64,000 nucleotides of DNA, taken from contig JAHHHT010000012.1 of assembly GCA_019359235.1 (NCBI GenBank), forward strand, positions 67,648 to 131,647, written 5' to 3'. The position numbers were made by a program, and so were the translations under genes. The notes under the pieces were generated by a model that saw only the letters and a program-made list of their open reading frames with translations, was not told the DNA's origin and did not search any database. Numbering within the stretch: position 1 is the first letter of the stretch; the number at the start of each line of letters is the position of its first letter. Shown here one piece after another: positions 30,659 through 50,675 of this stretch. Source of the DNA: Oscillatoria princeps RMCB-10 (GTDB lineage Bacteria > Cyanobacteriota > Cyanobacteriia > Cyanobacteriales > Oscillatoriaceae).

Positions 30659-33325
30659 ATGAAGAGAAGTAAGCAAATGGCTGAGAATCCAACAGAAATT
30701 CCTCTGACTGCGAGTGGGGTAATTCGCCTGAAGCCCCAGCAGTACATTCACGTTCTGGACAACAACACCGGCGTCACGAGGCTGGAGGTTGGCCCGCAAA
30801 CGATTACGCTTCGCGATCACGAGCGCCTGGTATTAAAACCCTCACCGATGATAATTGTGCCGCCCCGGCATTATTGTGCGGTTGCCAATCCGGTTCTCCG
30901 CAATGATGAGGGCACGCCAGTTGCCGATCAGCACGGCCAAATTAAACTGCGGTACGGCGATCGGGAAATTCGCTTAGCGCAAGATCCTTTTCCCCTGTAT
31001 CCGGGCGAAGCGATCGAGCAAGATGTGACGCGCTTGCACGTCGTGGAGACAAATCAAGCGCTGCGTCTGAGAGCGATTCGGGATTTTTCGGATGCAGTGA
31101 CGGTGACGGTTGAGGGAGAAATTGAGACTCAAACTATCAGCCGTACAGCCGGCGATGAGTGGCTGTTTGAAGGACCGGGAACTTATCTGCCCCGGGTGGA
31201 AGTGGAGGTACTGGAAACTGTGGCGGCTACGGTGATTAAGCCGAACCAAGCTTTGCGCTTGCAGGCGCGACAGAATTGCACGGACCGGCTGGGAAATCGC
31301 CGCCGTGCCGGTGAAGAGTGGCTGGTGAGAGAAGAGGGTGCCTATTTGCCCGGGGTTGATGAAGAAGTGATTGCCATTGTTAAGGCTTACGTTCTGACAG
31401 AGCGGAAAGCGCTGCACTTGAGGGCGAAACGCACTTTTACTGATATTTTTGGCCGGCAGCGGAAAGCTGGCGATGAGTGGTTGGTGACAATCTCGGATGC
31501 AGAGATACACATTCCGGATGTGTATGAAGAAGTGGTGGGAGAAGTTGGGATTACGACTCTGGGCGATCGGGAGTGGTGTATTGTGGTCGATCCGATTGGT
31601 GAGGATGGCAAGCCGCAATTAGGAAAGCGAGAGGTTCGCCAGGGAAGAGCGTCTTTTTTCTCGCATCCGGGAGAGTCGCTGGAAGGGGGCATTCAAAAAG
31701 TCTATGTTCTCGGCGAGCGGGAAGCGCTTTTGCTGCGAGCTAAAGAAGCTTTCAGTGAGGGGGAGGGCGAGAGTGCGGTGGAGCGCCAGCCGGGGGATTT
31801 GTGGATGATTTCCGGTCCGCGAGATTATATTCCCCGCGTGGAAGTGGAAGTGGTTGAGCGGCGCAAAGCGATTCCTCTGGATAAGAATGAAGGCATTTAT
31901 GTGCGGGATATTCAGACGGGTGAACTCAGGCTGGTGAGCGGCCCCCAGGCGTATATGCTCAGCCCGTATGAGGAACTTTGGGAGAAAGAGCTTCCGCCGG
32001 TTGTTGAGGAGTTTCTGGCGCAAAAAACCGATCCTGTTTCTGAGCGCAGCCAGAGTCACAGTACAGGGAGTTCCGAGGCAGGTCAAAAATCTGTAGCCTC
32101 GAAACCTGTCGCTAAACGGGATAAAACTAGGGCGGTTGTTTTTCACGTCCCGCAAAATGCAGCGGTGCAAATCCACGACTATAAAAACCGAAGCGCCCGC
32201 ACTGTATTTGGCCCGGATTTGGTGATGCTGGGACCTGATGAAGCATTTACGGTGCTGAGTTTGTCAGGTGGCAAGCCTAAGCGACCGAATGTGATTAAGT
32301 CGCTGGCTATATTGCTGGGCCCTGATTTTATGACGGATATCTTCATCGTGGAAACATCAGATCACGCCCGACTTCAGATGCAGCTGTCGTATAACTGGTA
32401 TTTTGATGTGGATAGAGCGGATGAGCAAGCTGCTGCAAAACTGTTTCAAGTTCCGGATTTTGTGGGGGATGCTTGCAAGGCGATTGCGTCTCGGGTGCGG
32501 GGCGCTGTGGCGGGGGTGCCATTTGACGAATTTCACCGGAATTCTGCCCGGATTATTCGGGAGGCTGTGTTTGGAACGGATGCGGAAGGTCACGTTCGCG
32601 ATGAATTCCGCTTTCGGGCGAATAATTTGGTGATTACGAACATTGACATCCAGTCTGTGGAGCCGGTGGATGAGCGGACTTTGTCCAGTCTGCAAAAGTC
32701 GGTTCAGATTGCGATTCAAATTACGACGGATGCTCAAGAAGCGGCGGCGAAGCGCGATGCGGAGCGGATTGAGCAAGAGGCTAAAGCTCGACTGGAAAGG
32801 CAGATTATTGTCGATCGGGGTGCGGCTGAGGTAGAGCGGAAAAAGCTGCTGGAATTCCAGGCTGAAAATGCGGCGATTCAGTCTACGGGGCAAGCTATTG
32901 CGGAGGCGAGGGCGAAGGCGGAAGCGGCTCGGATTCAAGGGGAATTGGCTGTGAATATGGCGCAGCAAGAAGCGGAGGCGGCTCGGATTCGGGCTGAAGC
33001 TGATTTGGCGCAGCTGAGAGCGCGTCAGGAGGCGGAGTTGGCTCACCAGCAGGCGCTGGTTAATCTGGAGATTGACAAAGCGGATCGCATGGCTGAAATT
33101 ACCAGTGCGGAATTCGCGCAGAAAGTTGCGGCAATTGGGCCGGAAACGCTGAAAGCTATGGCTCAAGCGGGACCGGAAATGCAGGCGCGGCTTCTGCAAA
33201 GTCTTGGCATTCAGAGTGTGCTGATTACTGATGGGAAAAATCCGATTAATCTGTTTGGCGCTGCTAGCGGTTTGATCGGTTCGGTGACGCCGCCGCTGAG
33301 TTCGGAGCCGCAGCGCGGGGGTTGA
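30659..33325 (+). CDS. Major vault protein (MVP) homologue, full length.
   Basis: The 888-aa product is collinear with, and highly similar to, the eukaryotic MVP consensus. The N-terminus reads …YIHVLDNNTGVTRLEVGPQT…VPPRHYCAVANPV…IRLAQDPFPLYPGE. The repeat domains read AGDEWLFEGPGTYLPRVEVEV…AGEEWLV…AGDEWLVT. The shoulder reads IPLDKNEGIYVRDIQTGE…FGPDLVMLGPDEAFTVLSLSGGKPKRP…FVGDACKAIASRVRGAVA. The cap-helix reads …EAAAKRDAERIEQEAKARLERQ…GPEMQARLLQSLGIQSVLITDG. The alternative start is the Met at 30677. Confidence 0.9.
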   Translation: MKRSKQMAENPTEIPLTASGVIRLKPQQYIHVLDNNTGVTRLEVGPQTITLRDHERLVLKPSPMIIVPPRHYCAVANPVLRNDEGTPVADQHGQIKLRYGDREIRLAQDPFPLYPGEAIEQDVTRLHVVETNQALRLRAIRDFSDAVTVTVEGEIETQTISRTAGDEWLFEGPGTYLPRVEVEVLETVAATVIKPNQALRLQARQNCTDRLGNRRRAGEEWLVREEGAYLPGVDEEVIAIVKAYVLTERKALHLRAKRTFTDIFGRQRKAGDEWLVTISDAEIHIPDVYEEVVGEVGITTLGDREWCIVVDPIGEDGKPQLGKREVRQGRASFFSHPGESLEGGIQKVYVLGEREALLLRAKEAFSEGEGESAVERQPGDLWMISGPRDYIPRVEVEVVERRKAIPLDKNEGIYVRDIQTGELRLVSGPQAYMLSPYEELWEKELPPVVEEFLAQKTDPVSERSQSHSTGSSEAGQKSVASKPVAKRDKTRAVVFHVPQNAAVQIHDYKNRSARTVFGPDLVMLGPDEAFTVLSLSGGKPKRPNVIKSLAILLGPDFMTDIFIVETSDHARLQMQLSYNWYFDVDRADEQAAAKLFQVPDFVGDACKAIASRVRGAVAGVPFDEFHRNSARIIREAVFGTDAEGHVRDEFRFRANNLVITNIDIQSVEPVDERTLSSLQKSVQIAIQITTDAQEAAAKRDAERIEQEAKARLERQIIVDRGAAEVERKKLLEFQAENAAIQSTGQAIAEARAKAEAARIQGELAVNMAQQEAEAARIRAEADLAQLRARQEAELAHQQALVNLEIDKADRMAEITSAEFAQKVAAIGPETLKAMAQAGPEMQARLLQSLGIQSVLITDGKNPINLFGAASGLIGSVTPPLSSEPQRGG

Positions 33326-34578: not shown

Positions 34579-36021
34579 ATGGTTACAATCGCAACAACGA
34601 ACCGGCAGCAACAAAGTATTGACATCCAAGTTGCTCGCAACCTAGCGATCACGACGAATACCGTCCCCCAAATGACGGGGATTACACCCCGGTGGCTGCT
34701 GCACTTCCTGCCGTGGGTGCAAGTGCAATCGGGAACGTACCGCGTCAACCGCACCAAAGTCGTTCTCAAACCAACTCCAAAAGTTAAGGTCAATAACAGC
34801 AACGGCTCCTCGAATGTGGCCCCTGAAGACCTGCGGACAATCCCCATCCTGTCAGACCTCGCTACTTCTGACGCTGCCGCGCTCGCCAATCGCTTTCAAA
34901 GCCAGTCTTTTGGGATGGGAGAAACTATAGTTGCGGAAGGTCAAAAAGACGACAAATTCTATATCGTCGCTCAAGGGAAATTAGAAGTGTTAATGCGGGG
35001 CGAACAAGGCTACCCCTTGCGCCTTGCCGTTCTGGGTGCGGGAGACTACTTCGGCGAAGTCGATCTCTATCAAGATCTGCCCAGCGACGCCACTGTTCGC
35101 ACACTGACTCCCTGCCGGTTGCTGACGCTTTCCAAAACCTGCTTCGACCAAGTGGCGAGTCAATCCCCACAAGTGCTGGAAAACTTGCGGCAGGCGGTTG
35201 AAAATCGCATGCGGTTAAAGACGCTCCTCAACCTGTACGGGGAAGAAAAAGTTGCGCTCGCCGCTGACTACGAAGGCGAAACTGAGTTACCCGCCTCGTT
35301 TGTGGACTACGAAAACGAACCGCAAGAGTACGAACTGAGTATCGTCCAAACTATTTTGCGCGTTCACACCCGCGTCGCCGACATTTACAACGAGCCGATC
35401 GATCAGTTGCGCGAACAGCTTCGCCTGACTGTCGAAGGCATGAAAGAGCAGCAAGAATGGGAAATTATCAACAACCCTGCCTTTGGCTTGCTGAACGCCG
35501 CCGCGCCCTCAATGCGCGTTCAGCCCCGCTACGGTGCGCCGACTCCCGACGATCTCGATGAAATGCTGGCTCGCGTGTGGAAACAACCGGCTTTCTTCCT
35601 GGCTCACCCACGGGCGATTGCAGCTTTCGGACGCGAATGCACGCGCCGGGGCGTTCCGCCGGTAACTGTGAATCTGTTCGGCTCTCCTTTCATAACCTGG
35701 CGCGGTGTGCCAATTGTGCCCTGCGACAAATTGGAAGTGCAAAATCGCACCGGCAACCCCGAAGGTCCAGGCAAAACGAATATCCTGCTCGTGCGTGCCG
35801 GTGAAAAAGAACAAGGCGTTGTCGGCTTGCATCAAATGGGCATTCCCGGCGAACAAATGCCCAGCCTGTCTGTGCGGTTCATGGGCATCAACATCCAGGC
35901 GGTGGCTTCTTATTTGATGACGCTGTACTTCTCCTGCGCTGTCTTAACCGATGACGCTCTAGCCGTGCTGGAAAACGTGGAGGTGGGATACTACCATGAC
36001 TATCAATATGCCAGCGCATAA
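34579..36021 (+). CDS. Family 2B encapsulin shell protein (HK97-fold nanocompartment) with an inserted cNMP-binding domain.
   Basis: The 480-aa product has an internal CRP-like cNMP-binding domain reading …[28 protein letters not shown]…[11 protein letters not shown]…[11 protein letters not shown]. The C-terminal HK97-like region reads [21 protein letters not shown]…NILLVRAG…[14 protein letters not shown]. The stop overlaps the next gene by 26 nt. Confidence 0.8.
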
Positions 36022-37915
36022 CGGTAAAAACGGACATGGGACGGCTCAAGACGTGCCATTACCTCCCACCGGCGACAGTGGGATGTTTGACCCGATCTCT
36101 GTAGAATCGATGGCGAATCAGTTTTATACCGCTGTGCCGAATGCTCTCAGCGTGGCAGCCCCAACCGGCACCCAGCCTGCAATTGACAATATCGGGACTG
36201 TTCCGCAGCCTGAGAGGAATAGTTCTGGCATGAGTGGGGTGGCATTAGTCGGGAACTCCGCACCGGCATCAGCCCTCAGCGAGGAAGCATTAACCGCAAT
36301 GGCTAAACAGTTGCGCTCGCAGATGGTTCCCGCTAATTTGGAAGCTAACCTGTTTCAGGCATTCGCACAGATCAAACCCGCTGCCCCCTCGCAGGAAACG
36401 GCTGCGGCGCTGCCAACAACTTCGGCTTCCAGCAATGCCTTGAATGTGGAAGCTTTGAAAGAGGCGGCACAACAGCTGTACGCCCAGATTCCTCAGATTT
36501 CCCCCAGCGGAATTCCGGGCAATTCGATTGCCACGCCTCCAAAGCCAACTTCTATTTTACCGCTCAGCGAGCCAGATTTGCAAAGGGCTTTCGCGGATGC
36601 GGGAGCGCAAGCCAGCCATTCTCCGGTTCGGGAAACACCTCAGCCGTCGTTCTATTTCCTGTCTCCCCCAGCAGTGGAAAATCTGGGGTTAGAGTCTGGG
36701 GCTGTATTTGATGTCAGCGCCATCCGCAAAGACTTTCCGATTTTGCACCAGAAAATCAACGGCAAACCGCTGATTTGGCTGGATAACGCCGCCACAACTC
36801 AAAAGCCGCAAAGCGTTATCGATGCCCTGTCGCTGTTCTACCAGCGAGACAACTCCAACATTCACCGGGGCGCTCACACTCTGGCGGCGCGGGCGACGGA
36901 TGCTTATGAGGGAGCGCGGGAAAAGGTACAGCGGTTTATCGGTGCGGGTTCGGCGTCGGAAATTATCTTCGCACGGGGAACCACAGAAGCGATTAATCTG
37001 GTGGCGCAAACCTGGGGTCGCAAGTATATCCAGCCCGGAGATGAAATTGTTCTCTCGACGCTGGAACACCACGCCAATATCGTTCCGTGGCAGATGTTGG
37101 CGCAAGAGACGGGGGCAATTTTAAAGGTTATCCCTGTTAGCGATAGCGGCGAAATTATGCTGGAGGAATACGCCGGACTTCTCGGACCGCGCACTCGCAT
37201 TGTTGGGATTACGCAGGTTTCTAACGCTCTCGGAACAATTGTTCCAGTGCGGGAAATGACGCAAATAGCCCACCGGCACGGGGCAGTCGTCCTTGTTGAC
37301 GGGGCGCAGGCTGTTTCTCACATGCCGGTTAATGTTCAAGAGATCGGTTGCGATTTTTACACCTTTTCTGGTCACAAACTCTTTGCGCCAACGGGAATTG
37401 GTGTCCTGTACGGGAAACGGCAAATCCTGGAGGATATGCCTCCTTGGCAGGGTGGCGGCAGCATGATTCGCCATGTCACGTTCGAGAGAACGATTTACAG
37501 CGATCCCCCGGCAAAATTTGAAGCGGGAACGCCTAATATTGCTGATGCGGTTGGACTGGGTGCGGCGATCGACTATATCACCCGCCTGGGGATGAGCAAT
37601 ATCGAACGGTACGAGCACAAACTCACCGAGTATGCAATAGAACGCCTCGCGCAGATTCCGGGGTTGCGTCTAATTGGTACTGCACCTCACAAAGTAAGCG
37701 TGGTGTCGTTTATTTTGGATGACATCCCTGTGGAACAAGTTGGGCAGCGCCTCGCCCGAGAAGGGATTGCGGTGCGTGCAGGTCATCACTGCGCTCAACC
37801 GACGATGCAGCGGTATAATCTGACGGGTACGGTTCGGCCTTCGCTGGCTTTTTACAACACTTGTCACGAAATCGATACGCTAGTAGAAGTCCTGCGGACA
37901 ATTCGCTTCCGCTAG
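35996..37915 (+). CDS. SufS/CsdA-type cysteine desulfurase with a ~215-aa disordered N-terminal extension (the putative encapsulin cargo-loading domain).
   Basis: Residues 1 to ~215 are low-complexity and rich in Ala, Pro, Ser and Gln. They are followed by a class V aminotransferase/SufS core reading …[11 protein letters not shown]…HRGAHTLA…[13 protein letters not shown]…[17 protein letters not shown]…RAGHHCAQP, which supplies the PLP-binding lysine and the active-site Cys loop. Confidence 0.85.
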
Positions 37916-40600: not shown

Positions 40601-42754
40601 ATGAACGATGTCGTTCTGAACCTGACTATTTATCCCTGTGATATTGCCATAATTGGAGGCGGCTTTAGCGGCTGTCTGGTTGCAGCAAATCTTTTGCGGG
40701 ATGCAACCGTGCCGGTGGTGATTAAGTTGATTGAACGGAGTCCGGAAGTAGGCAGAGGAGTGGCTTACGGGACGCAAATATCCTGTCATTTGCTTAACGT
40801 GCCGGCGGGGAAGATGAGTGCGTTTGCGGATGAACCGGCTCACTTCCTGAACTGGTTGCAAAGGAACGGGTATGCTGACAGTACAGCATCCTCTTTCATC
40901 CCGCGTCAGGTTTATGGGGATTATGTGCGGGCACTGTTGAAGGAAGCGGAAACAAATGCTCGGGCTGGTGTGCGGTTGCAGCGGATTGTGGGGGAAGCGG
41001 TTGCGCTGGAAACGACAGCAACCGGCATCAGGGTGTACCTGAAAGACGGTGAGTGTTTGTGCGTTCAAAAGGCTGTGCTAGCGCTGGGAAATTTCCCGGC
41101 ATCTCTGCCCGAACCGCTTGCCGGTCTGGAGAACTTCGACCGCTATCTGAGAGATGGCTGGGAAGCTGATGCGGTTGCCGGTCTGAATCCAGACGATTCT
41201 ATTCTGGTGGTGGGCACCGGCTTGACGATGGTCGATGCGGTTGCTACTTTGCACCAAAAAGGATTTCAGGGGAAAATATATGCCGTCTCGCGTCACGGTT
41301 TGATGCCTGCCGGTCACAAACTAACAAGTCATTATCCAGCATTTATTGAGGCAGATACTGCACCAATAAATGCGCGAGAATTACTTCATTTAGTGCGTCT
41401 AGAAGTGCGAGCGGCGGTGGCGCAGGGGCACGACTGGCGTGCGGTAATCGACGCACTCCGCCCAGTCACGAAACAACTTTGGCAAGCACTTCCATTGCAG
41501 GAACAAAAGCGATTTTTGCGCCACGTCAAGGCTTACTGGGAAGTGTGCCGGCATCGCATTGCTGAAGAAATGGCAAATCTGCTGGATGCGACAGTGCAGT
41601 CGGGTCAACTGAAGCATTATGCCGGTCGGATTCAAAGCTGTCGGGAGTTGGAGAATCGGGTGGCTGTGACGATTCGGGAACGGGGGAAGCAAACGGAGAA
41701 AGTGTTCTTGGTCAGCCGGATTCTGAACTGCACCGGCTCAAACTGTAACTATCGCAAGTTGCAGCACCCCTTGCTCGCCAGCTTGCAAGAACAAAAGCTG
41801 ATCCGCTTCAACGAGCTGTCAATCGGAATCGACACGGCTCCAAACGGTGCTCTAATCGATGCAAACGGAAAGGTATCGGAATTGCTGTACACTTTGGGAA
41901 CACCCCGCAAGGGCAATCTTTGGGAAACTATAGCCGTTCCCGAAATTCGGGTTCAGGCTGCTTCTCTGGCGCAGGAACTGCTAAAATCCCTCAATCCCAA
42001 AGCCGATACTCCTGTTGCGGGGGATTGGTGTGCTGGAAATCTATCGCTCGCGTTACAGAAATCTACTATGCTATTGCGTCAACTGTTCGATAAAGAATCG
42101 AGTACCTACACTTATCTGATTGCCGATTTCTCTACCAAAGCAGCCATCCTAGTCGATTCTGTATTGGAACAAGTGGAACGGGATCTCCAGCTGTTGCGAG
42201 AGTTGGATCTCACCCTGCGCTATTGCCTGGAAACCCACATCCATGCCGACCACATCACCGGCACAGACAAGCTGAGGACACTTACGGGCTGTCTGGCTAT
42301 TTTGCCGGAAAATACTGAGGTGACTTGTGCGGATGGCTATATGGCGGATGGGAAGATTTTGCAACTGGGAAGCTTACAGATCCGCGCCATTGCCACCCCC
42401 GGTCATACTGACAGCCATAATGCTTATCTTATCGATGGCATTTACCTGTTAACCGGAGATGTGCTGCTGATCCGGGGTTGCGGTCGTACTGACTTTCAGA
42501 ATGGCAATGCCGGTTTGCTGTATGATGCTGTAACGCAGAAGTTATTCACGTTACCGGATGACACTTTGGTGTATCCCTGTCACGATTATAAGGGGCAAAC
42601 AGTGTCTACTATTGGGGAAGAAAAGTGCTGGAATTCCCGGTTGGCGGGGCGCAATCGCAGCCAGTTCATCGAGCTAATGAATAATCTCAATCTGCCCTAT
42701 CCCAAAAAGATGCTGGAATCTGTATCCGCCAATCAGCGCTGCGGTCAAATTTAA
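40601..42754 (+). CDS. Fusion protein with an N-terminal FAD/NAD(P)-binding (NAD_binding_9-like) domain and a C-terminal ETHE1-type persulfide dioxygenase (metallo-beta-lactamase fold).
   Basis: The N-terminus has a Rossmann GGGFSG dinucleotide motif. The C-terminus has HIHADH (HxHxDH) and TPGHTDSH metal ligands and the PDO-specific GRTDFQ motif. It is 717 aa. Confidence 0.75.
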   Translation: MNDVVLNLTIYPCDIAIIGGGFSGCLVAANLLRDATVPVVIKLIERSPEVGRGVAYGTQISCHLLNVPAGKMSAFADEPAHFLNWLQRNGYADSTASSFIPRQVYGDYVRALLKEAETNARAGVRLQRIVGEAVALETTATGIRVYLKDGECLCVQKAVLALGNFPASLPEPLAGLENFDRYLRDGWEADAVAGLNPDDSILVVGTGLTMVDAVATLHQKGFQGKIYAVSRHGLMPAGHKLTSHYPAFIEADTAPINARELLHLVRLEVRAAVAQGHDWRAVIDALRPVTKQLWQALPLQEQKRFLRHVKAYWEVCRHRIAEEMANLLDATVQSGQLKHYAGRIQSCRELENRVAVTIRERGKQTEKVFLVSRILNCTGSNCNYRKLQHPLLASLQEQKLIRFNELSIGIDTAPNGALIDANGKVSELLYTLGTPRKGNLWETIAVPEIRVQAASLAQELLKSLNPKADTPVAGDWCAGNLSLALQKSTMLLRQLFDKESSTYTYLIADFSTKAAILVDSVLEQVERDLQLLRELDLTLRYCLETHIHADHITGTDKLRTLTGCLAILPENTEVTCADGYMADGKILQLGSLQIRAIATPGHTDSHNAYLIDGIYLLTGDVLLIRGCGRTDFQNGNAGLLYDAVTQKLFTLPDDTLVYPCHDYKGQTVSTIGEEKCWNSRLAGRNRSQFIELMNNLNLPYPKKMLESVSANQRCGQI

Positions 42755-42769: not shown

Positions 42770-42855
42770 GGGGTGGGTTACGCTGTCGCCAACCCACCCT
42801 ACTTTTCTTTGGGGGGGTGGGTTACGCTGTCGCTAACCCACCCTACTTTTCTTTA
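42770..42855. repeat. Direct duplication of a ~39-bp SDR hairpin between convergent genes.
   Basis: The unit ggtgggttacgctgtcgc(c/t)aacccaccctacttttcttt occurs twice. Confidence 0.85.
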
Positions 42856-45800
42856 GACAAAATCAAGTTGAGGACGTTCAGCTCACTGGAAGTGAGGAGG
42901 TATTTGTCGGTAAAGATTTTTTCCCTCATTTCTTCTAGGCTGTAGCTCCTGAAGATAAGAAAGGGGAATTCCCCGTACTTGCGACCGATGGGCAGGGTGT
43001 TGTATGCTGGGTAAAGGGAGTGGACATACTTGGACATAAGCGTGCGAAATTCGGTGTCTTCTTCCTCTTCTGGATTGGTTTTGAAATAGTCCCGCATCGC
43101 CTCACCGGCAATAAAGGCAAACAGTGGCAAAGCATAATACTGATCGTCTCTCTGGCTGCTCTGCTCAAACCACTGAGTTCGGCTGACTTCGCCGCTGAGC
43201 AATTTCACCAGCTCCATCGCGCCACCCCTGATGGCGGTGCGCAGGTTTTCCGGGTACTCCTGGCGGTGGCTAATCGCCCGCATTTTGGCGATCAGTTCGG
43301 GGGTGGCGTGCTTTCTGATCTGCTGTTCCAGTCGAATTTGGTAAGTTTCTTCCAGGGTTTTCTCACCCACCGGCACCACCAGCAAGCTGCCACTAATGTG
43401 CCCCGCTTCTATGTTACCATAATCTAGCAATTTGTCAAGGCTTCGGCACATCTGGGAAAACTGCCGGTTGAACAGCTCCCGCAAGGAAAGATAGGAAAGC
43501 TTTTCAGAAACCCGGTTTCTTGGAGAAACCGGGTTTCTCGATGTGGCTGGATTGAGCAAGGTGAATTCGGCGCGGCTCAGAATTTCCTGCAAACTGGTAT
43601 AAACCTGCTGGAGCACCAGGTAGCTGGGACGACGGCGGTGTTCGTTCTTCAGTTCTCGGATTAGATTAGTCATCTGACCGGTAAAGGTATCACCGGCTGC
43701 TGACACAGACTTCCCGCCGATAGGAATCATCATAAACTCTTTCCTCCCCAGACGCCAAGCCCCCACAATCCGCGTCATCACGGAAACCTTGAGAATCAGC
43801 AAGATATTTAACAAACTTAAGACGCTCTCCTGGATGGAAAGCTGGCGCTCTTTGGCGTAGTCCTCAAAGGAAGTATCGCGCTCTTTGGGGTAATATAGCG
43901 CTCTATCGTACAAGTAAAAAATCAGCTCCTTGTCTTCGCCGTCGAGAGTCTTGCTTTCCCCATTTTCCCGATATTCCCCACGCGCTCTGTAGATAACCTG
44001 GATGACTTCCATCAGGTTTCTCTCCACCTGGAAGCGGGGAATTTCCGCCAGGATGCGCTTCGCCTTGGGAAAAGACAGCCCCCGACTCGCGGAAGATGTC
44101 ATAAAGACTACCTTGACATGATTCTTGTGCTGGTGTATGTTTTTCTTAGCCTCCTCGGAGAGATTGGCGTGGATTTCCAGGTAGTCCTGATTTTCCGTAA
44201 ACTCTCCCCACTGCTTCCGAAGTTTCTCAATTAGCTCCTGCAATCTCTTTTTGTCCTGGATGTACACCAGCAGCTGACTGGCGTCTGGATTTTCCAAGTA
44301 GGCGCTGATGTCCTCGGCTATCTTTGACTGTACGGCTTTCACCAAGCTGTTCCCTTTGTCTGAAACCGCCTCCTCGCTGTATTTCAAGCACTCGACAAAC
44401 ACCTTATAGGTGATTGACAAACTGCGAGCGGGATAGGAGTTGGCGTTGATGGCGATAGCACCGGCTCTCTTAAACGGAAACCGCGACACAGAAAGAGGCG
44501 CTGCGGTTTGTTTCGCCATCCGGAAATAGATTTTGTCCGGTTCCGGTGAGGCTTCCGAGAGGTGCTGGGTGATAACTTCTGGCTCAACAATAGAGGCGTC
44601 GGCGACAATGACTTTGGTGTTGAAGCCGTGCTGCGCTAGCTGAAAGCGGTGCAAAAATTGGCTGATTCCTTTCAGGAAGTTGACGCCGCTATCGTCGCCG
44701 GTGATTTCGTCTACCATGATAAAGACGTGCTTTATCCTTTGCGAGATTTTGCGCATCTCGGAGCCAATGACTTTCCCCTCGCGCTTATTGTAAGCACGTT
44801 TGAAGATTTTGTCAAGGTGATCTAGGGTGTTGGCTCCATTGGGGGTGATCCGCAAAGACTGGATGGAGACTGTGGCGACAATATTATTGTATTTCCTGCT
44901 GTCGATGAGGGCGTGGATTCCTTCGCAGATGCTAGCTAGTACGCCGGCGGTTCGCTCGCCAATATCTCGAAATGTGTCTTCGGTTTCCCTCTGGAGGCGC
45001 TTCTGGCGCGTGTTCGTAGTAGGGGCTTTAGCCCCTCCCGTAGCGTTGAGGAAGTGGACGGACTTGGCGGTAAAATCATCCTGGCGCTGATTAGAATGAT
45101 ACTCGACTGTGGGTTTTCCGCCGTTTTCTTTGATGATGCTGGCGTTGGTGTTGATGCAAAACAGCCGGCTGTCGGACAGTTTGTCGGTGTCTGGGGATTT
45201 GAATTTCTCGATGATGTCTAGGTTAACTTGTTTGCGGGGACTGACGTAGAAGAACAAAAACCCCTCGTCGATGTGAGCTTGCAGAAAGTTGGCGATGGCT
45301 GTGGTTTTGCCAATTCCGGGATTGCCGGTTAAAAATATATAGGTATCGTCCGAAACCAGCGCCTTTCTGATAAGTTCGGCGTGAGCGTCTCTCAGGTGGG
45401 ATTTGGGACTGATGTCTAGCTGCGCTGCTAACTCAGCCGGTATAATATCTATAGAGTTGAGAAAGCCATCCATCCGCTCGGTGTGAAGGACTTCTGCAAT
45501 TCCGTCCTCTCTGAGGCTGAGAGGTTTTTCTGACAGCGACTCGACGAACTTCTTCCCCTCATTAAAACTCCGAGTGGCATTTTGCTGGATAATCCCTAAA
45601 ACCTGCCGGCGAGCGGTGTTGATTTCCTGTTTATCACGTTGATTTTTGTAAATCTGCGCACAAGTTGCCAGTACGTTTAAGTTTTCCGGGCGCAGGGACA
45701 TGGCGCTGATGCCCCGGTCACTGTACCCAACTGCATTAAACACCACCGGCGCACTTTCTGTCAAGATGCCGGTTTGTCGCAGAAATCCATAGAAGCTGTG

Positions 45801-46580
45801 AGCGTAGGAAGCCGCTTGGATTAACTTTGCGCTTTCTTTGTCCTCGCGCTTAAAGGCGGTGAAGTACCGGTGCAACTCTTCGGAAAACTCCACCCCCAAG
45901 TTGCCGGTGGAGCCGGTGTCTATCCGCAGTTTGGAGAAAAAGCTTTTGGATCGCAAATAGCTAATCTCGCGCAGCAACATGCGCCGCTGATTTTCCAGTT
46001 CTTTGTCTTCCAAGTCTAAGAGGTCTTGCGCGGACTTGACAGAAAATATGGATAAGTCTAGGGAAAGAATCCTGTACTTATCTCTGTTTTTCAAGAGCAT
46101 CAGGGTGTCCGCTTTCAAAAACTCTCCCTTAGTCTTGTGCCGGTGAATCACCGTATCCAGGTTATCTAAAGGGCCAAACTGAGACAGTAACTCGCCATAT
46201 TCTTGCTCCTCAGTCTTGGGATATGTTTTGATGCTATTGGCTTCGCAAAAGCTGCACTGGTAATACATAATTTCGGTATTTGCCAATTGCTTATCGTCCC
46301 AACCGGCAGCTTTGATGTACTCCCAGAAGAAGTTTAACCCAGAGAGGAAGCCTTTCTGGATCATGTACAGGCTCCACTTTTCCACAATCCCGATATTCTC
46401 AGTGCTGATCAGCTCTTCATCCTCAACCATCCGCTTCAGCATTTCGGGGAAGTGCAAGTGCTGCAAATCGTGCCGGTACAGGGTGCCAAAGTTATGCTTT
46501 ATCTGGTGGTGTTCGATGAAGGCGAGGATGCCGGTGTTGAACCCGACCTCAAAGAGCCGGCCTAAATTTTCTGCTATCAT
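42843..46580 (-). CDS. Large P-loop NTPase with an SF1 (Upf1/UvrD-like) helicase-like core. Its function is unknown.
   Basis: The 1245-aa product has Walker A at FLTGNPGIGKTT, Walker B at FIMVDEITGDD, motif V-like at VVFMTSSASRGLSFP and motif VI-like at IQVIYRARG. I could not assign the ~470-aa N-terminal region or the ~400-aa C-terminal region. It contains an in-frame SDR insertion at 43505-43539. Confidence 0.7.
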   Translation of the reverse strand: MIAENLGRLFEVGFNTGILAFIEHHQIKHNFGTLYRHDLQHLHFPEMLKRMVEDEELISTENIGIVEKWSLYMIQKGFLSGLNFFWEYIKAAGWDDKQLANTEIMYYQCSFCEANSIKTYPKTEEQEYGELLSQFGPLDNLDTVIHRHKTKGEFLKADTLMLLKNRDKYRILSLDLSIFSVKSAQDLLDLEDKELENQRRMLLREISYLRSKSFFSKLRIDTGSTGNLGVEFSEELHRYFTAFKREDKESAKLIQAASYAHSFYGFLRQTGILTESAPVVFNAVGYSDRGISAMSLRPENLNVLATCAQIYKNQRDKQEINTARRQVLGIIQQNATRSFNEGKKFVESLSEKPLSLREDGIAEVLHTERMDGFLNSIDIIPAELAAQLDISPKSHLRDAHAELIRKALVSDDTYIFLTGNPGIGKTTAIANFLQAHIDEGFLFFYVSPRKQVNLDIIEKFKSPDTDKLSDSRLFCINTNASIIKENGGKPTVEYHSNQRQDDFTAKSVHFLNATGGAKAPTTNTRQKRLQRETEDTFRDIGERTAGVLASICEGIHALIDSRKYNNIVATVSIQSLRITPNGANTLDHLDKIFKRAYNKREGKVIGSEMRKISQRIKHVFIMVDEITGDDSGVNFLKGISQFLHRFQLAQHGFNTKVIVADASIVEPEVITQHLSEASPEPDKIYFRMAKQTAAPLSVSRFPFKRAGAIAINANSYPARSLSITYKVFVECLKYSEEAVSDKGNSLVKAVQSKIAEDISAYLENPDASQLLVYIQDKKRLQELIEKLRKQWGEFTENQDYLEIHANLSEEAKKNIHQHKNHVKVVFMTSSASRGLSFPKAKRILAEIPRFQVERNLMEVIQVIYRARGEYRENGESKTLDGEDKELIFYLYDRALYYPKERDTSFEDYAKERQLSIQESVLSLLNILLILKVSVMTRIVGAWRLGRKEFMMIPIGGKSVSAAGDTFTGQMTNLIRELKNEHRRRPSYLVLQQVYTSLQEILSRAEFTLLNPATSRNPVSPRNRVSEKLSYLSLRELFNRQFSQMCRSLDKLLDYGNIEAGHISGSLLVVPVGEKTLEETYQIRLEQQIRKHATPELIAKMRAISHRQEYPENLRTAIRGGAMELVKLLSGEVSRTQWFEQSSQRDDQYYALPLFAFIAGEAMRDYFKTNPEEEEDTEFRTLMSKYVHSLYPAYNTLPIGRKYGEFPFLIFRSYSLEEMREKIFTDKYLLTSSELNVLNLILSKEK

Positions 46581-46668
46581 GTTTTCCTGCTTTGCGGCGT
46601 TTATTATTGTACTACAATAGGATGTCGGTGCGACCTACCGCACCGCAACTATTATTGGACAAACTTTT

Positions 46669-47184
46669 TTAGCTGACCGGGGACATTGTGGGGGCGGGAG
46701 CGCAGTATTTTGATGCCGGGATAAAGCTGCGATCGTCTTCAGTATCTACCTGAAGAGAAAACGACACACTTTCTATTTCCCAGTCTACCCAGGCTAGCGG
46801 ATTATTGTAAATACCCTCCAGTTCAAACAAGGTTACGGGTTCATCTACAGGGAAGAAATCTTCAATGACAGTTGGCGGCTGTTTTTTGGGGGGGACGTAG
46901 TTATTAGAACCTGGCGGATCTTCAACATACTCAGCGATCTGCAGCACGGATTTCTTCACGCCGGTGAAAATGCAGAGGCATTTTTGCCAGAAAATCAGCT
47001 CATCCGTTGGATTTAGAGGATGGCCAGGAAGAATTCCGATATTGCGAGTCTCGATTAAAAGCTGCCACTGGTCGAACCTAAAGCCCTCTCCCTGTTTAAA
47101 AGTTATGGTCTTTTGCAAGCTCCAGTCTTCCAAGTCACACTCTGTAAAGTGGAGGTAATCGAAATAATTACTGACAGTATTCAT
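46669..47184 (-). CDS. Hypothetical protein, the middle gene of the cassette.
   Basis: The ORF is ~171-180 aa with no recognised motif. It lies co-directionally between the two large genes with short gaps. Confidence 0.5.
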   Translation of the reverse strand: MNTVSNYFDYLHFTECDLEDWSLQKTITFKQGEGFRFDQWQLLIETRNIGILPGHPLNPTDELIFWQKCLCIFTGVKKSVLQIAEYVEDPPGSNNYVPPKKQPPTVIEDFFPVDEPVTLFELEGIYNNPLAWVDWEIESVSFSLQVDTEDDRSFIPASKYCAPAPTMSPVS

Positions 47185-47381
47185 CCTACCTTCTCCCAAA
47201 TTGTATAGCAATAGACAGCCAGTTGAGGATATTGGGTCGGAAGGAACGCCTGTCCTATGAAGGATAGGCGTAGGGCAGGCGAGACGCCTGCCCCCAAGGT
47301 CTAATGTTCTAACCTAAATGGCTGTTGCTATAGTCCTTCCCCCTTGGGGGGGGTAGGGCTAAAGCCCTACTACGAACCTTT

Positions 47382-50300
47382 TTATCTAGATGCCTCCTCT
47401 ATTAATGCTTTCTTAATCTCGGTCATAAAGGCCAAAGCGTTAAATTCAATCTCCTCTCTCATGTGGTTAAAGATAGACAGCTTCCCAAACGAATCATCCC
47501 CGATGATATTCTCGTAAGGGTCGAGTTTTAAACTGATATTGCTGTTTCTCTCGAACCGCGAAAAGTGAAACAGCGTCAGGTATTGCAGCAAGTCAGCTTT
47601 CAGGGGAGTGTCATCCAGCAATCCCTGACGGATGTCCATGTCATCGAGAATGCCTTCATAGATATTTACCAGTGTAGCGTAAGAAACAACGCCGTTGTAA
47701 AAGCGCTCCTCCTTGTTCCCTACCGTAATCCCATTAAACAGGTTGAAAAACACCACTGCTTGCTGCTGGGGATCGCTGGACAGACTTGTGAGCTGCTCGG
47801 TGTTTGAGACGTACAAGGATCTCACCCCCGGATCTTTTAGCTTGCGGACGTAGTATTTATCAAAAAACACCGGGTATATCTTAATGTCCTCACGCTCTCC
47901 CTTCAACTCCTTGATTAGTCTGGGTGACATAAAATACAGTTCCTCCTCCTCCTGACTCCTGGTGATGTGCAGGGTGCTGGAATAAGGAGCTTGAGCGATA
48001 TACAAAAAGTGCCGGTATCCCTCCCGATAAAGATTGTCCACCGTATTTATAAGCACCGGCGGGTCAGAATAGATACGCGAATTGCGGTCATTGTCAGAAA
48101 AAGTCTTGAGAATCTCCAGCCGAACAGTCCCGTCCTCTTGGCGCGTGACGCTCGCCACTTCTCCGAGCAAATTGGAAATGCGGCTTTTCGGGTTCCTGTT
48201 ACCTGTCCTAGCGTCGCTCTCCACGCTGGATACTATAATAATAGCAAGTTTTTCTAGCGTTGGGAACTCCTCGACAAAGCGAAACTTTTTGGGAAGCACA
48301 GAGTACAGGGAACTCAGACCATTCCTAATGGTGTGTTCATTCAGTTTCTTCACCCGGAACCCTTGGGAACTGCACCGGCATTTCTCATTCAGCAGGTGGG
48401 ACAGTCCTTTAGAAAGGTTTGCCAGAAACTTCTCAAGCGGGAAAGGGTTCTCGTCGTCGCCCTCGTGCAGCCTCACCATCGGGACAAATAAATTGTCCGG
48501 CGCATTTTCCAGCAACAGGTTCAGGCATATAGGTGCTATAACTGCCCAGGTGAACTGGTAAACAAAAGCCTGAGTGGTGTCCAAACGATTCGGGTTATCC
48601 TCGTTTAGACGCCGGTTGTCGTAGGGAAACAGGACTAGCTTATTCTGCTGCAAATTCCTCGTGTAGACACTCCAACAAGCCTCTTGCTTGGGAACCCAAG
48701 CCACCGGCAGGGCACTGATCCCTTTTATATCATACTCCCAGCTGAACTTTTCCCGCTCTTCAGCCGTAAAGTAGCGGATATCTTCTACAGTAATGCTAGC
48801 CGGCAGCTGGCAGAGAGCGTCCTCATCCACATGCGCCCCGCCAATCGAGATATATCTCAGGCATTCCTTGGGATTGCGCCCCAATACCTCCCCAAAGAAA
48901 GCCCCGTTAATCATGCTGTCGATATCCCGGTTCAGGATGCCTTTCCTCACCGCAATCTGGATGGGATAGGTTCGGGTTGGCAAAATCGCCTGTCTGTCCA
49001 GAAAGTTCCTCAGCAATTCCCTCACCCGGCTTATCTTGTCGCGCACATTATACTTATTGAAGCCTCGCACTATATTCCGAAATAGTTTCTTTTTCGCCCC
49101 CTCGTCATTTCCTTGCAGCACCGGCAGGATTCGGGTGTCAAAAGCCGCAACCGGATCGTAATTTAAGTCGTTGCTTGGCGTATAGCCGGCAGCGGATGGG
49201 TCATCGCACGCAAACACGAAAAAGTACAAAAACACCCGCCTCAACACTCTGGCGGCAAAAGTTTCCCGCTGGGAAGAGTCCGCGATTTCCTCCTGATGTT
49301 TCTTGCTTTCTGGACTGATGATATCCAGATTGTAGTCAAAGACTTCATCACCCCCCAGCGCTTGCACCTTGCCGGCCAACTTTAATTTTAGGCCAAAAAC
49401 AAACTGAATCTCTCCCCCGCTCCTGTCCGTATTTTCTCCCAAGTACCCGCCTACAATAGGAATGATGGGAAGGGAGTCCAGAGCTTCGGCGCGGGAAAAC
49501 GCATCTTTATAGTTAACCGTCACCCCAGCATAGCTCACTTCGTAATGCGCATCCGCTCTGTCAGCGCTGATATACTCTTCTATCAGCCTCAGACGCCGGA
49601 GCAAATCTCGCAGATAGATAAGTCCCAGAGAGTCTTGCGTCTCGATGTTCTCGACCAGATACTCCAAATAAGCAATTTTCGCTTCTTTCTTCAGCTTACC
49701 CAGGGTTTCTGTATCAACAATTTCCTGCAGCCGGTAAAAGTCAGAATATTCCTCAATCTCCAGCCGGTCGAGAGCGCTATACAAATCTGACTTGTCCTCT
49801 TCACTTTCCCAAGGCACCTCCCGCTCAATGTAGTTTTCCAATCCCCGCCTGAGACTGTCTTGAAACTGATTTATATTCCGCACCGCAATCGTGAGTTTGT
49901 GGAATTTCAGCAGGGACTCACTTCCGGAACGGTCAAATTCTAGACTGAGTTTCTGTTTCTCCAGGTTATCATACCGCTTGCCAAAGTCATAGGCAAAACC
50001 CAACTGACCTCGGTTCCCCGGAAAAGATTGCAGATCGCGCGTTATTAAACCGGCAACCAGCTCCTGAATAGAGCCGGTTTCTCCCAGTGCGGATTCTAGC
50101 TTCTCCCTCAAACACTCTCTTATCTCCCGCACCTTACCCGGAAAGCCCTCTCGGAAACCTCGGCTAAAGTTGACACTTGCGGAGCGAACCCCAAGGGATG
50201 ACTCCAGGGGATTCTGCACCTGCGCCGAAGTCGCTAGAGAGGCGGCAAATTCATCAATATCAACAAGCAACTTGCGGCGATCTCCCGATATCCTGAACGG

Positions 50301-50393
50301 ATTCAGACTCCGCAAAGCTCTTAAAATATTTTCCAGCAAATCGCTGTAGTTCACGGCGACTAAATCGCCGTCCCCTGGCTGCAAGATGTTCAC
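47382..50393 (-). CDS. Large hypothetical protein, the first gene of the cassette.
   Basis: The 1003-aa ORF has no recognisable catalytic motif by eye. Its composition is coding-like throughout. Confidence 0.65.
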   Translation of the reverse strand: MNILQPGDGDLVAVNYSDLLENILRALRSLNPFRISGDRRKLLVDIDEFAASLATSAQVQNPLESSLGVRSASVNFSRGFREGFPGKVREIRECLREKLESALGETGSIQELVAGLITRDLQSFPGNRGQLGFAYDFGKRYDNLEKQKLSLEFDRSGSESLLKFHKLTIAVRNINQFQDSLRRGLENYIEREVPWESEEDKSDLYSALDRLEIEEYSDFYRLQEIVDTETLGKLKKEAKIAYLEYLVENIETQDSLGLIYLRDLLRRLRLIEEYISADRADAHYEVSYAGVTVNYKDAFSRAEALDSLPIIPIVGGYLGENTDRSGGEIQFVFGLKLKLAGKVQALGGDEVFDYNLDIISPESKKHQEEIADSSQRETFAARVLRRVFLYFFVFACDDPSAAGYTPSNDLNYDPVAAFDTRILPVLQGNDEGAKKKLFRNIVRGFNKYNVRDKISRVRELLRNFLDRQAILPTRTYPIQIAVRKGILNRDIDSMINGAFFGEVLGRNPKECLRYISIGGAHVDEDALCQLPASITVEDIRYFTAEEREKFSWEYDIKGISALPVAWVPKQEACWSVYTRNLQQNKLVLFPYDNRRLNEDNPNRLDTTQAFVYQFTWAVIAPICLNLLLENAPDNLFVPMVRLHEGDDENPFPLEKFLANLSKGLSHLLNEKCRCSSQGFRVKKLNEHTIRNGLSSLYSVLPKKFRFVEEFPTLEKLAIIIVSSVESDARTGNRNPKSRISNLLGEVASVTRQEDGTVRLEILKTFSDNDRNSRIYSDPPVLINTVDNLYREGYRHFLYIAQAPYSSTLHITRSQEEEELYFMSPRLIKELKGEREDIKIYPVFFDKYYVRKLKDPGVRSLYVSNTEQLTSLSSDPQQQAVVFFNLFNGITVGNKEERFYNGVVSYATLVNIYEGILDDMDIRQGLLDDTPLKADLLQYLTLFHFSRFERNSNISLKLDPYENIIGDDSFGKLSIFNHMREEIEFNALAFMTEIKKALIEEASR

Positions 50394-50405: not shown

Positions 50406-50675
50406 TCAGAACACTTGAATCCACTCTTTCACATCATACTCCGTCCAGATGCCGTTTTGCCAGTACGGATCTGCCTCAACCAGCCGGCGCACCGCCGCTT
50501 CATCTTCCGCCTCGTAGAGGCCAAACACCTTGGTGACATCCTTAGTTGGGCCAACCGTAATCAGAACACCGGCTTCCTTTAGCTTCCTCAGTCCATCCAG
50601 GTGAGCTTGCCGGTAAGGCTCCCGCCTTTCCAGCACATTCTCACAGTAACTTCCCCACATCACATACTTAGCCAT
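50406..50675 (-). CDS. YciI-like protein.
   Basis: The product is ~90 aa and reads MAKYVMWGSYCEN…REPYRQAHLDGLRKLKEAGVLITVGP…EADPYW, which is the Dabb/YciI pattern. The ORF track start at 50756 is probably too far upstream. Confidence 0.55.
   Translation of the reverse strand: MAKYVMWGSYCENVLERREPYRQAHLDGLRKLKEAGVLITVGPTKDVTKVFGLYEAEDEAAVRRLVEADPYWQNGIWTEYDVKEWIQVF

Follow-up and report, generated by a model that had tools for sequence, protein, structure and literature searches.

We describe here a conserved pair of genes in a stretch of 64,000 nucleotides from Oscillatoria princeps RMCB-10 (contig JAHHHT010000012.1, positions 67,648 to 131,647), which will be called the window. The first gene encodes a 1003-residue protein, the partner, that is predicted to be an Argonaute-fold protein diverged past sequence recognition, Argonautes being proteins that bind nucleic acids as directed by a guide. 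The second encodes a 1245-residue helicase of superfamily 2 (SF2), which matches, at 100% identity, the NCBI entry 'helicase' from the metagenome-assembled genome (MAG) of this organism. The best reading of the pair is that it resembles the DdmDE, ApsAB and pPIWI-RE systems in outline but constitutes a distinct family. The two genes are located as follows.

47382..50393, minus strand: 1003-residue partner with a predicted Argonaute fold, gene 1 of the conserved pair
42843..46580, minus strand: 1245-residue SF2 helicase-like protein, gene 2 of the conserved pair

A first-pass annotation of the window had proposed a three-gene cassette at this position, with a small open reading frame (ORF) between the two large genes, as a candidate defence system inserted in a variable region. 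One part of this proposal stands, namely an unannotated conserved module built around a large helicase, and to it can be added the predicted fold of the partner and the carriage of the pair on plasmids in Nostocales. The argument from a variable region, on the other hand, is not supported. Since the partner is predicted to have the Argonaute fold, the pair would fall in the same functional class as DdmDE, ApsAB and pPIWI-RE.

The conserved unit consists of these two genes and no others. In all of the roughly 14 distinct loci examined, from at least ten genera and from metagenomes, the partner gene is followed by an adjacent helicase gene on the same strand, with a spacing that ranges from a 4-nucleotide overlap to a gap of about 360 nucleotides. 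The linkage is seen in Oscillatoria, Kamptonema, Microcoleus, Argonema, Laspinema, O. acuminata, Scytonema, Nostoc, Trichormus, Microchaete and metagenomes. The identities of the two proteins fall in parallel (85/90, 51/58 and 30/34% for partner/helicase), and at the lowest of these values the two genes, here on a plasmid, are still adjacent and collinear over their full length. One database protein of 2028 residues (P0293) is a fusion of the two, with the partner in residues 1–990, the P-loop at 1423 and the Helicase_C domain at 1762–1875. It could be a natural fusion or, because the genes often overlap by 4 nucleotides, a frameshift artefact. The partner family amounts to 336 representatives at 50% identity among 1.84 billion proteins, nearly all of them of about 1000 residues. 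The named homologues are all cyanobacterial except for one MAG, and they come mostly from filamentous cyanobacteria. A scan of contigs with the single helicase sequence returned no more than four close relatives.

We now consider the fold of the partner. The first-pass annotation had seen no recognisable motifs in this protein or in the product of the small ORF, and the sequence libraries lead to the same result. For the partner, no match was obtained in Pfam (E≤0.1, including Piwi and PAZ), PADLOC or NCBIfam, none of 120 partner homologues carries a precomputed Pfam domain, and eight divergent relatives gave no match to pPIWI_RE or to other Pfam models. The structure gives a different picture. 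An AlphaFold model calculated from 60 homologues is confident, with a predicted local distance difference test score (pLDDT) of 81.4 and a predicted template-modelling score (pTM) of 0.75, and when it is compared with the PDB using Foldseek, ranks 1–16 are all Argonautes. The top match is TtAgo, with an E-value of 1.3e-7 and a probability of 1.00, and the alignments with RsAgo span 840–1000 columns. A second, independent structure-comparison method agrees, and the Argonaute matches align 370–417 residues over the MID and PIWI domains together. The predicted structure thus contains, in the order expected for an Argonaute, a Rossmann-like MID domain followed by a PIWI domain of RNase H fold. The assignment rests on predicted structure, because there is no sequence homology to Argonautes, DdmD or DdmE, pPIWI-RE or the PADLOC models.

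The two segments of the partner that correspond to these domains in the model are the following.

48276..48641, minus strand: MID-like Rossmann segment, residues ~586–706, with the order β-α-β-α-β-α-β in the model
47385..48251, minus strand: PIWI-like segment of RNase H fold in the model, residues ~715–1003

The conservation of individual residues was counted in an alignment of 28 partner sequences (A3) that reaches down to 20% identity, and their correspondence to Argonaute residues rests on the succession of secondary-structure elements instead of a superposition. Few partner residues are invariant in the whole family, and many of those that are cluster in the MID-like β-α-β segment. There, Q677, G678, N691, S695 and Y697 are found in all 28 sequences, K662 in 21 and K702 in 24, with arginine replacing the latter in two more, while position 658 is arginine in 12. 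Together they make up a candidate motif for binding the 5' end of a guide, (R/A)658-x3-K662...Q677-G678...K702. Its spacing of 4/15/25 can be compared with 4/11/24 for R418-K422-Q433-K457, the 5'-phosphate pocket of TtAgo. In the only local alignment to TtAgo that was obtained with hhalign, Q677 of the partner is paired with Q433, although this alignment is not statistically significant.

In the PIWI-like part, residues 715–848 of the model form a three-stranded β-meander followed by a helix and further strands. D727 closes the first strand of the meander and is aspartate in 26 of the 28 sequences, while E745 is glutamate in 21 and aspartate in three more. A third acidic residue, D845, is near-invariant in the cyanobacterial core of the family but acidic in only 18 of the 28 sequences. 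The segment Y905-x-T907, with the tyrosine present in all sequences and the threonine in 27, is located where Argonautes have Y-A-(H/D). The candidate acidic tetrad is therefore at most D-E-D-T, with threonine (T907) in the fourth position, and because it is not kept family-wide, slicer activity of the partner is uncertain. A DEDX tetrad characterises only those Argonautes that are active slicers.

Turning to the second protein, the helicase can be divided into a core and two large flanking regions.

45381..46580, minus strand: N-terminal domain, residues 1–400, kept across the whole family
43971..45353, minus strand: helicase core, residues ~410–870, with Walker A K425 and Walker B D624-E625
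42846..43970, minus strand: C-terminal region, residues 871–1245 (375 residues), conserved and collinear family-wide

The motif strings quoted in the first-pass annotation are all present. We scored them over 54 homologues, and GNPGIGKTT (containing K425), IMVDEITGD (D624/E625), VVFMTSSASRGLSFP and IQVIYRARG were found to be invariant or nearly so. Further core motifs are motif III (A660-D-A-S663), motif V (T828..R833-G834) and motif VI (Q861..R865.R867-G868), the residues named being invariant in these homologues. Searches of Pfam, PADLOC and NCBIfam with the helicase return only Helicase_C and weak P-loop matches. The protein had been described as similar to superfamily 1, that is, to helicases such as UvrD, RecD or Upf1, but this can be rejected, as the two RecA-like domains, the SF2 motifs and the Helicase_C domain identify the fold as SF2. 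Another candidate that was considered is a STAND/AVAST NTPase. The corresponding PADLOC Avs1b and nSTAND3 matches span only some 40–70 residues at or just upstream of the P-loop, and this assignment was also discarded.

According to the secondary structure of the model, two sub-domains are inserted in the core, one at residues ~430–617, between motifs I and II, and the other at ~665–768, between motifs III and IV. Their positions are like those of the INS and Arch inserts of XPD, DinG and DdmD, while the four-cysteine cluster, or Cys-rich iron-sulphur (Fe-S) region, is absent from the helicase.

The N-terminal domain is collinear at 34% identity in the homologue from plasmid pNPM2, and its invariant residues include D158, D175, S177, K212, D221, K248, E249, K252, Q255 and Y259. 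Over nine family members, it gave no consistent Pfam family at E≤10. One may speculate that it contains a degenerate PD-(D/E)xK motif, formed by D158...D175-x-S177 followed by QxxxY, but as this pattern is without the lysine, we do not claim that the domain is a nuclease. The C-terminal region has no Pfam or PDB sequence match, and a PD-(D/E)xK motif sought there by eye could not be recognised.

It is instructive to compare the pair with the known systems in which an Argonaute-like protein works with a helicase. In DdmDE of Vibrio cholerae, the DNA-guided, catalytically inactive Argonaute DdmE acts together with the helicase-nuclease DdmD to eliminate plasmids. The similarities are that both consist of two genes, one for an Argonaute-fold protein that in the present pair, too, appears to be without the canonical DEDX tetrad and the other for an SF2 helicase of about 1200 residues, and that the helicase has two insertions in the first RecA domain (HD1) and no Fe-S cluster. 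The logic is likely to be the same as well, judging from the analogy, with a guide-bound Argonaute that finds the target and a helicase that is loaded onto it. There are also differences. Family profiles show no sequence similarity to the DdmD and DdmE chains in the PDB at E≤10, no PADLOC model covers the pair, and DdmE is not among the top structural matches of the partner, which at 1003 residues is also larger. In DdmD the helicase is N-terminal (Walker A lysine K55) and a PD-(D/E)xK nuclease is C-terminal, whereas here a 400-residue domain comes first (Walker A lysine K425) and no nuclease motif is recognisable.

ApsAB of E. coli ST38 also eliminates plasmids, which for both systems has been shown by experiment, and is composed of the helicase-nuclease ApsA and of ApsB, an Argonaute-like protein that is detectable by structure only and in which a Y-x3-K..QG..K motif is essential. 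The partner is similarly Argonaute-like by structure prediction only and paired with a helicase, and it has an invariant Q-G flanked by conserved lysines. ApsA, on the other hand, has about 1570 residues, the motifs GFGKS, DELH, SAT and QAVGRVER and a C-terminal nuclease, and in these respects differs from the helicase described here. ApsB has 743 residues and is encoded downstream of ApsA, so that the gene order is the reverse of that of the present pair. ApsAB-like proteins do occur in cyanobacteria. Compared over about 400 residues, they have unrelated N-termini and the Walker A motif near residue 45, and over this range they appear to be a different family from the pair.

In the pPIWI-RE system, a restriction endonuclease (REase), a DinG-type helicase and the pPIWI-RE protein are encoded in a fixed order, and guided restriction of invading DNA has been predicted (Burroughs et al. 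2013). What the two have in common is a divergent bacterial PIWI-module protein whose N-terminal region is unrelated and whose gene is closely linked to that of an SF2 helicase. The partner and its eight relatives lack a pPIWI_RE Pfam match, however, and there is no separate REase gene. While the order REase-helicase-PIWI is strictly conserved in that system, here the PIWI-like gene precedes the helicase gene and the helicase has no Cys-rich Fe-S region. The best structural matches of the partner are in fact the long prokaryotic Argonautes TtAgo, RsAgo and AaAgo, which cover MID and PIWI and in the case of RsAgo nearly the full length. In contrast to these, the partner is about 300 residues longer, has no Piwi or PAZ Pfam match, is always linked to a helicase and has a tetrad that is at most D-E-D-T and not kept family-wide. 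The failure of the first-pass annotation to match the genes to any named defence system is in line with the PADLOC, Pfam and NCBIfam results, and no description of the partner-helicase family was found in the literature, which was searched by keyword and with the accessions of the Trichormus plasmid proteins.

On the basis of these analogies, a mechanism can be suggested in which the Argonaute-like protein recognises foreign DNA by means of a guide, the helicase is then loaded, and a further step inactivates the target. We consider it somewhat more probable than an even chance that the pair works in this way. In the first step, the MID-like pocket of the partner would grip the 5' end of a short guide oligonucleotide, with K662, Q677-G678 and K702 as candidate residues. 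The guide would next pair with a complementary stretch of the DNA of an invader, such as a plasmid or phage, and this pairing would recruit or load the 1245-residue helicase, the two proteins presumably forming a complex. Driven by ATP (K425, D624/E625), the helicase would then translocate along the target and unwind it, leading to inactivation. The inactivation itself could be the work of host nucleases, of either of the two unassigned helicase domains or, with D727/E745/D845 in the cyanobacterial clade, of the PIWI-like site in the partner. As the helicase has two conserved domains of unknown fold and no recognisable nuclease, this effector step may be new.

The biological role of the pair must be judged in the light of its genomic contexts, which are of two kinds. 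In the Oscillatoriales, the pair is found at a fixed position close to pheT and a YCII-family gene, which is placed as follows in the window.

50406..50675, minus strand: YCII-family gene, 89 residues from ATG (Pfam YCII, E 6e-21), ending 12 nucleotides upstream of the partner gene

Oscillatoria including strain PCC 10802, Kamptonema (L012) and Microcoleus (L024) share the order pheT-(Uma2/DUF29)-YCII-partner-helicase, and the gap between YCII and partner is 10–13 nucleotides in PCC 10802 and in the latter two. YCII is 79% identical between Oscillatoria and Kamptonema, where pheT is 73.5% identical, and it is not upstream of the pair in the other families examined. YCII is probably co-transcribed with the partner in this lineage and may be functionally tied to the pair. 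O. acuminata and Laspinema have another fixed context, MacB-OEP-partner-helicase. The synonymous divergence (dS) between the window and PCC 10802 is 0.205 for pheT, 0.26 for the partner and 0.20 for the helicase, and the corresponding ratios of nonsynonymous to synonymous divergence (dN/dS) are 0.22, 0.30 and 0.25, indicating purifying selection on the pair. Between the window and Kamptonema, the amino acid identities are 73.5% for pheT, 51% for the partner and 58% for the helicase. Because the synteny extends across four genera and dS matches that of pheT, the pair was not recently inserted in the window. An insertion in a variable region is not confirmed.

In the Nostocales, the situation is quite different. 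The pair is found there on six plasmids, all of them predicted to be conjugative, next to integrases, a resolvase or transposases. Neighbours of the pair in other loci include HicAB, ParE, a SocA/Panacea-domain protein and a caspase-nSTAND gene. The locus in the window, which is syntenic, has pheT-like dS and is without flanking repeats, integrase or tRNA gene, thus does not have the appearance of a defence island, while the conjugative plasmids and integrases of the Nostocales do fit a defence or mobile setting. A defence role of the pair is plausible by analogy, given the carriage on conjugative plasmids, the integrase and toxin-antitoxin neighbours and the known analogues.

At some of these loci, in Trichormus variabilis plasmid C and relatives (L005, L006 and L007, 14140–23672), genes for an 828-residue and an 1853-residue sacsin-like protein (PF25794) and for a 900-residue SNF2-family helicase are located directly downstream of the pair, which on the T. 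variabilis plasmid has the accessions WP_011316674/WP_011316675, and tyrosine integrase and Mu-transposase/TniB genes are located upstream. The sacsin-like and SNF2 genes may represent a second conflict system on the same island.

Several results speak against defence. In the Oscillatoriales the pair occupies an unchanging position flanked by housekeeping genes and its dS is that of pheT, which is unusual for defence genes. Judged by the refuting condition that the first-pass annotation itself had set, this vertically inherited pheT/YCII locus weakens the reasoning from defence islands, although it does not exclude defence. When IMG/VR viral contigs were scanned with the partner alignment, the family was not found. 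Finally, no nuclease domain was identified in the helicase, unlike DdmD and ApsA, in which the C-terminal PD-(D/E)xK domain is clear.

The explanation that competes best with guided defence keeps the same architecture of Argonaute-fold protein and helicase but assigns it to housekeeping maintenance of the genome in filamentous polyploid cyanobacteria. Examples would be the removal of R-loops or DNA-RNA hybrids, an aid to replication termination or decatenation, or the control of natural transformation. Just as the stable synteny in Oscillatoria, PCC 10802, Kamptonema and Microcoleus and the MacB/OEP context in O. acuminata and Laspinema fit this proposal, so do the dS of the pair, equal to that of pheT, with a similar dN/dS, the ordinary metabolic genes that adjoin the pair in several loci, and the helicase in which a nuclease domain was not found. 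In addition, published reports link bacterial Argonautes to cell division when topoisomerases are inhibited and to a limitation of natural transformation. The six conjugative plasmids with integrases in the Nostocales are difficult to reconcile with maintenance, as are the toxin-antitoxin and conflict genes that adjoin the pair in several loci and the selfish-looking small gene modules that the gap between partner and helicase repeatedly gathers. Moreover, a family of 336 representatives that is almost wholly cyanobacterial does not have a universal function. Taken together, we regard maintenance as rather unlikely but a serious contender, and because of the long vertical inheritance beside pheT in the Oscillatoriales we keep such a role in consideration.

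A second alternative concerns the Argonaute assignment itself. The resemblance could reflect an old shared fold or an artefact of prediction, in which case the partner would act as a scaffold or regulator, in the way that Med13 does in Mediator, and the substrate of the helicase would not be chosen by a guide. This explanation draws on the points that weigh against an Argonaute. Neither phmmer nor family profiles detected an Argonaute or DdmE among PDB sequences at E≤10, and hhalign comparisons of the family alignments with TtAgo (pTT27) gave probabilities below 1%, which are not significant, so that neither sequences nor profiles relate the partner significantly to any Argonaute. The TM-scores from Foldseek are also low, 0.2–0.3, which means that only part of the partner superposes on Argonautes, and the acidic tetrad is incomplete. 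What argues against a scaffold is that the two independent structure-comparison methods agree over 370–417 residues of MID and PIWI, and that the most conserved residues (Q677-G678, K662, K702 and N691/S695/Y697) are concentrated in the segment that resembles MID, the domain to which the 5' end of a guide binds. We therefore find this alternative improbable and continue with the Argonaute-fold interpretation of the partner.

It is also necessary to comment on the gene that separates the two core genes in the window.

46669-47211, minus strand: small ORF, 180 residues from TTG, or 171 residues from an ATG at 47184, which is the start used by homologues

The three co-directional ORFs with gaps of 90–170 nucleotides noted in the first-pass annotation are indeed there, with 1245, 180/171 and 1003 residues and with gaps of 88 nucleotides between helicase and small ORF and 170–197 nucleotides between small ORF and partner. 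The small gene is, however, absent from the two closest relatives, Oscillatoria sp. PCC 10802 (L001) and an uncultured Oscillatoria (L004), whose gaps of 180 and 165 nucleotides, respectively, contain no ORF between the core genes. Most other loci are also without it, and their core genes overlap by 4 nucleotides or lie within about 70 nucleotides of each other. Because of its absence in the closest relatives, the small ORF is rejected as a core component.

The small gene, called B here, gave no match in Pfam, PADLOC or NCBIfam for the ORF of the window. The family to which it belongs is a rare one (16 clusters), and the gene is under purifying selection, with a dN/dS of 0.12–0.15. B is usually the second gene of a two-gene mini-module, in which it follows an overlapping gene, A, of about 157–181 residues with a pattern like that of class-I methyltransferases (VDLFGG...GGRIYINATKGNP); neither A nor B has a Pfam match. 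The A-B module lies between partner and helicase in L015 (4803–5887) and L018 (6780–7846), just downstream of the helicase in L003 (4082–5076), and at a place unrelated to the pair in Trichocoleus (L014, 7639–8585). B occurs without A in the window (46669–47184) and in L013, where it is again between partner and helicase. The module is thus in or beside the pair in five of the six distinct loci where it is seen. It may act as a passenger of toxin-antitoxin type or as an accessory factor. We treat the 171-residue gene as a lineage-specific passenger that prefers this site and not as part of the system, while an accessory role is possible.

The helicase gene ends at a repeated element, which lies between it and a convergent gene.

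42770..42854, plus strand: tandemly duplicated 44-nucleotide hairpin with T-run, terminator-like, between the convergent 717-residue gene and the helicase gene
40601-42754, plus strand: convergent 717-residue gene, a fusion of an FAD/NAD(P)-binding and a metallo-β-lactamase domain

The two copies of the repeat (42770–42810 and 42814–42854) are adjacent and 98% identical, and each consists of a GC-rich hairpin of 9 base pairs followed by a T-run on the plus strand. The array starts 15 nucleotides past the stop codon of the 717-residue gene, which ends at 42754, and the helicase ORF takes its final three codons and its stop codon from the second copy. The 44-nucleotide repeat was found neither at the other end of the cassette nor anywhere else in the window. 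What had been taken for flanking direct repeats is therefore one tandemly duplicated hairpin at one end only. From its sequence, it looks like a terminator shared by the two convergent genes, and it is not part of the system. A mobile island with att-like repeats was rejected, as the repeat is at one end only and there is no tRNA gene in the window.

The original picture of a defence cassette of three genes (1003, ~175 and 1245 residues), inserted as a mobile island with flanking direct repeats, is thus largely refuted and very improbable: the small family lies in or beside the pair in five of six loci and its purifying selection makes some functional tie to the pair possible, but neither the two closest relatives nor most loci have the gene, where present it may lie between the core genes, behind the helicase or in another place, only one end carries the tandem hairpin, and dS and synteny show no recent insertion.

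Some remarks can be made about the surroundings of the pair. The window differs from PCC 10802 in the small ORF, in the DUF29 gene, which is absent there between pheT and YCII, in the 717-residue gene and in the hairpin. In the window, the DUF29 gene and then pheT follow beyond YCII on the partner side. On the helicase side, the 717-residue gene is missing from the otherwise syntenic region of PCC 10802, so it is this gene, rather than the helicase pair, that is one of the insertions at the window locus. Beyond it lies the sulfur locus.

34579-37915, continuing to 40455, plus strand: sulfur locus

This locus contains a type 2A SrpI-like encapsulin shell protein of 480 residues with a cNMP-binding domain, whose gene overlaps a 639-residue gene similar to class-V aminotransferases and cysteine desulfurases. 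The latter is followed by a hexapeptide acetyltransferase and two small sulphur-transport/DUF6691 membrane proteins. Farther away, at 30659–33325 on the plus strand, an 888-residue protein contains Major Vault Protein (MVP) repeats (Vault, Vault_2/3/4) and the MVP shoulder domain (E 7e-71 and 6e-55). It is thus homologous to the shell protein of eukaryotic vaults but bacterial, and an ORF of 888 residues also lies at the syntenic position of PCC 10802 (L001, 19764–22430). At 21746–21824 on the minus strand there is a match to the Rfam group II intron domain RF00029 with 63.9 bits, overlapped by a D5 match. No tRNA gene was found in the 64-kb window.

Finally, we return to the pair as a possible guide-programmed system and to what it would mean. 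Argonaute-plus-helicase systems such as DdmDE and ApsAB, which shape the spread of plasmids, have been recognised only recently, and a further family found through structure prediction alone would show that the Argonaute superfamily is still under-counted in bacteria. Tentatively, the pair may represent an unrecognised clade of Argonaute-fold proteins, hidden from sequence methods and nearly confined to mostly filamentous cyanobacteria, with a dedicated SF2 helicase that carries two novel domains; it would carry out guide-programmed targeting of DNA with an effector unlike those of DdmDE, ApsAB and pPIWI-RE. The family is present across many filamentous cyanobacteria, among them formers of blooms or mats such as Microcoleus, Oscillatoria, Kamptonema, Laspinema, Okeania and Nostocales, and the pair could partly explain the poor genetic tractability of these organisms, that is, their loss of plasmids and low transformation. 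Its long fixation at one chromosomal locus in the Oscillatoriales suggests that an Argonaute system has been domesticated in bacteria and is used in part for housekeeping, and the combination of vertical inheritance at a housekeeping locus with carriage on conjugative plasmids makes it a useful case for the domestication of defence-type machinery.

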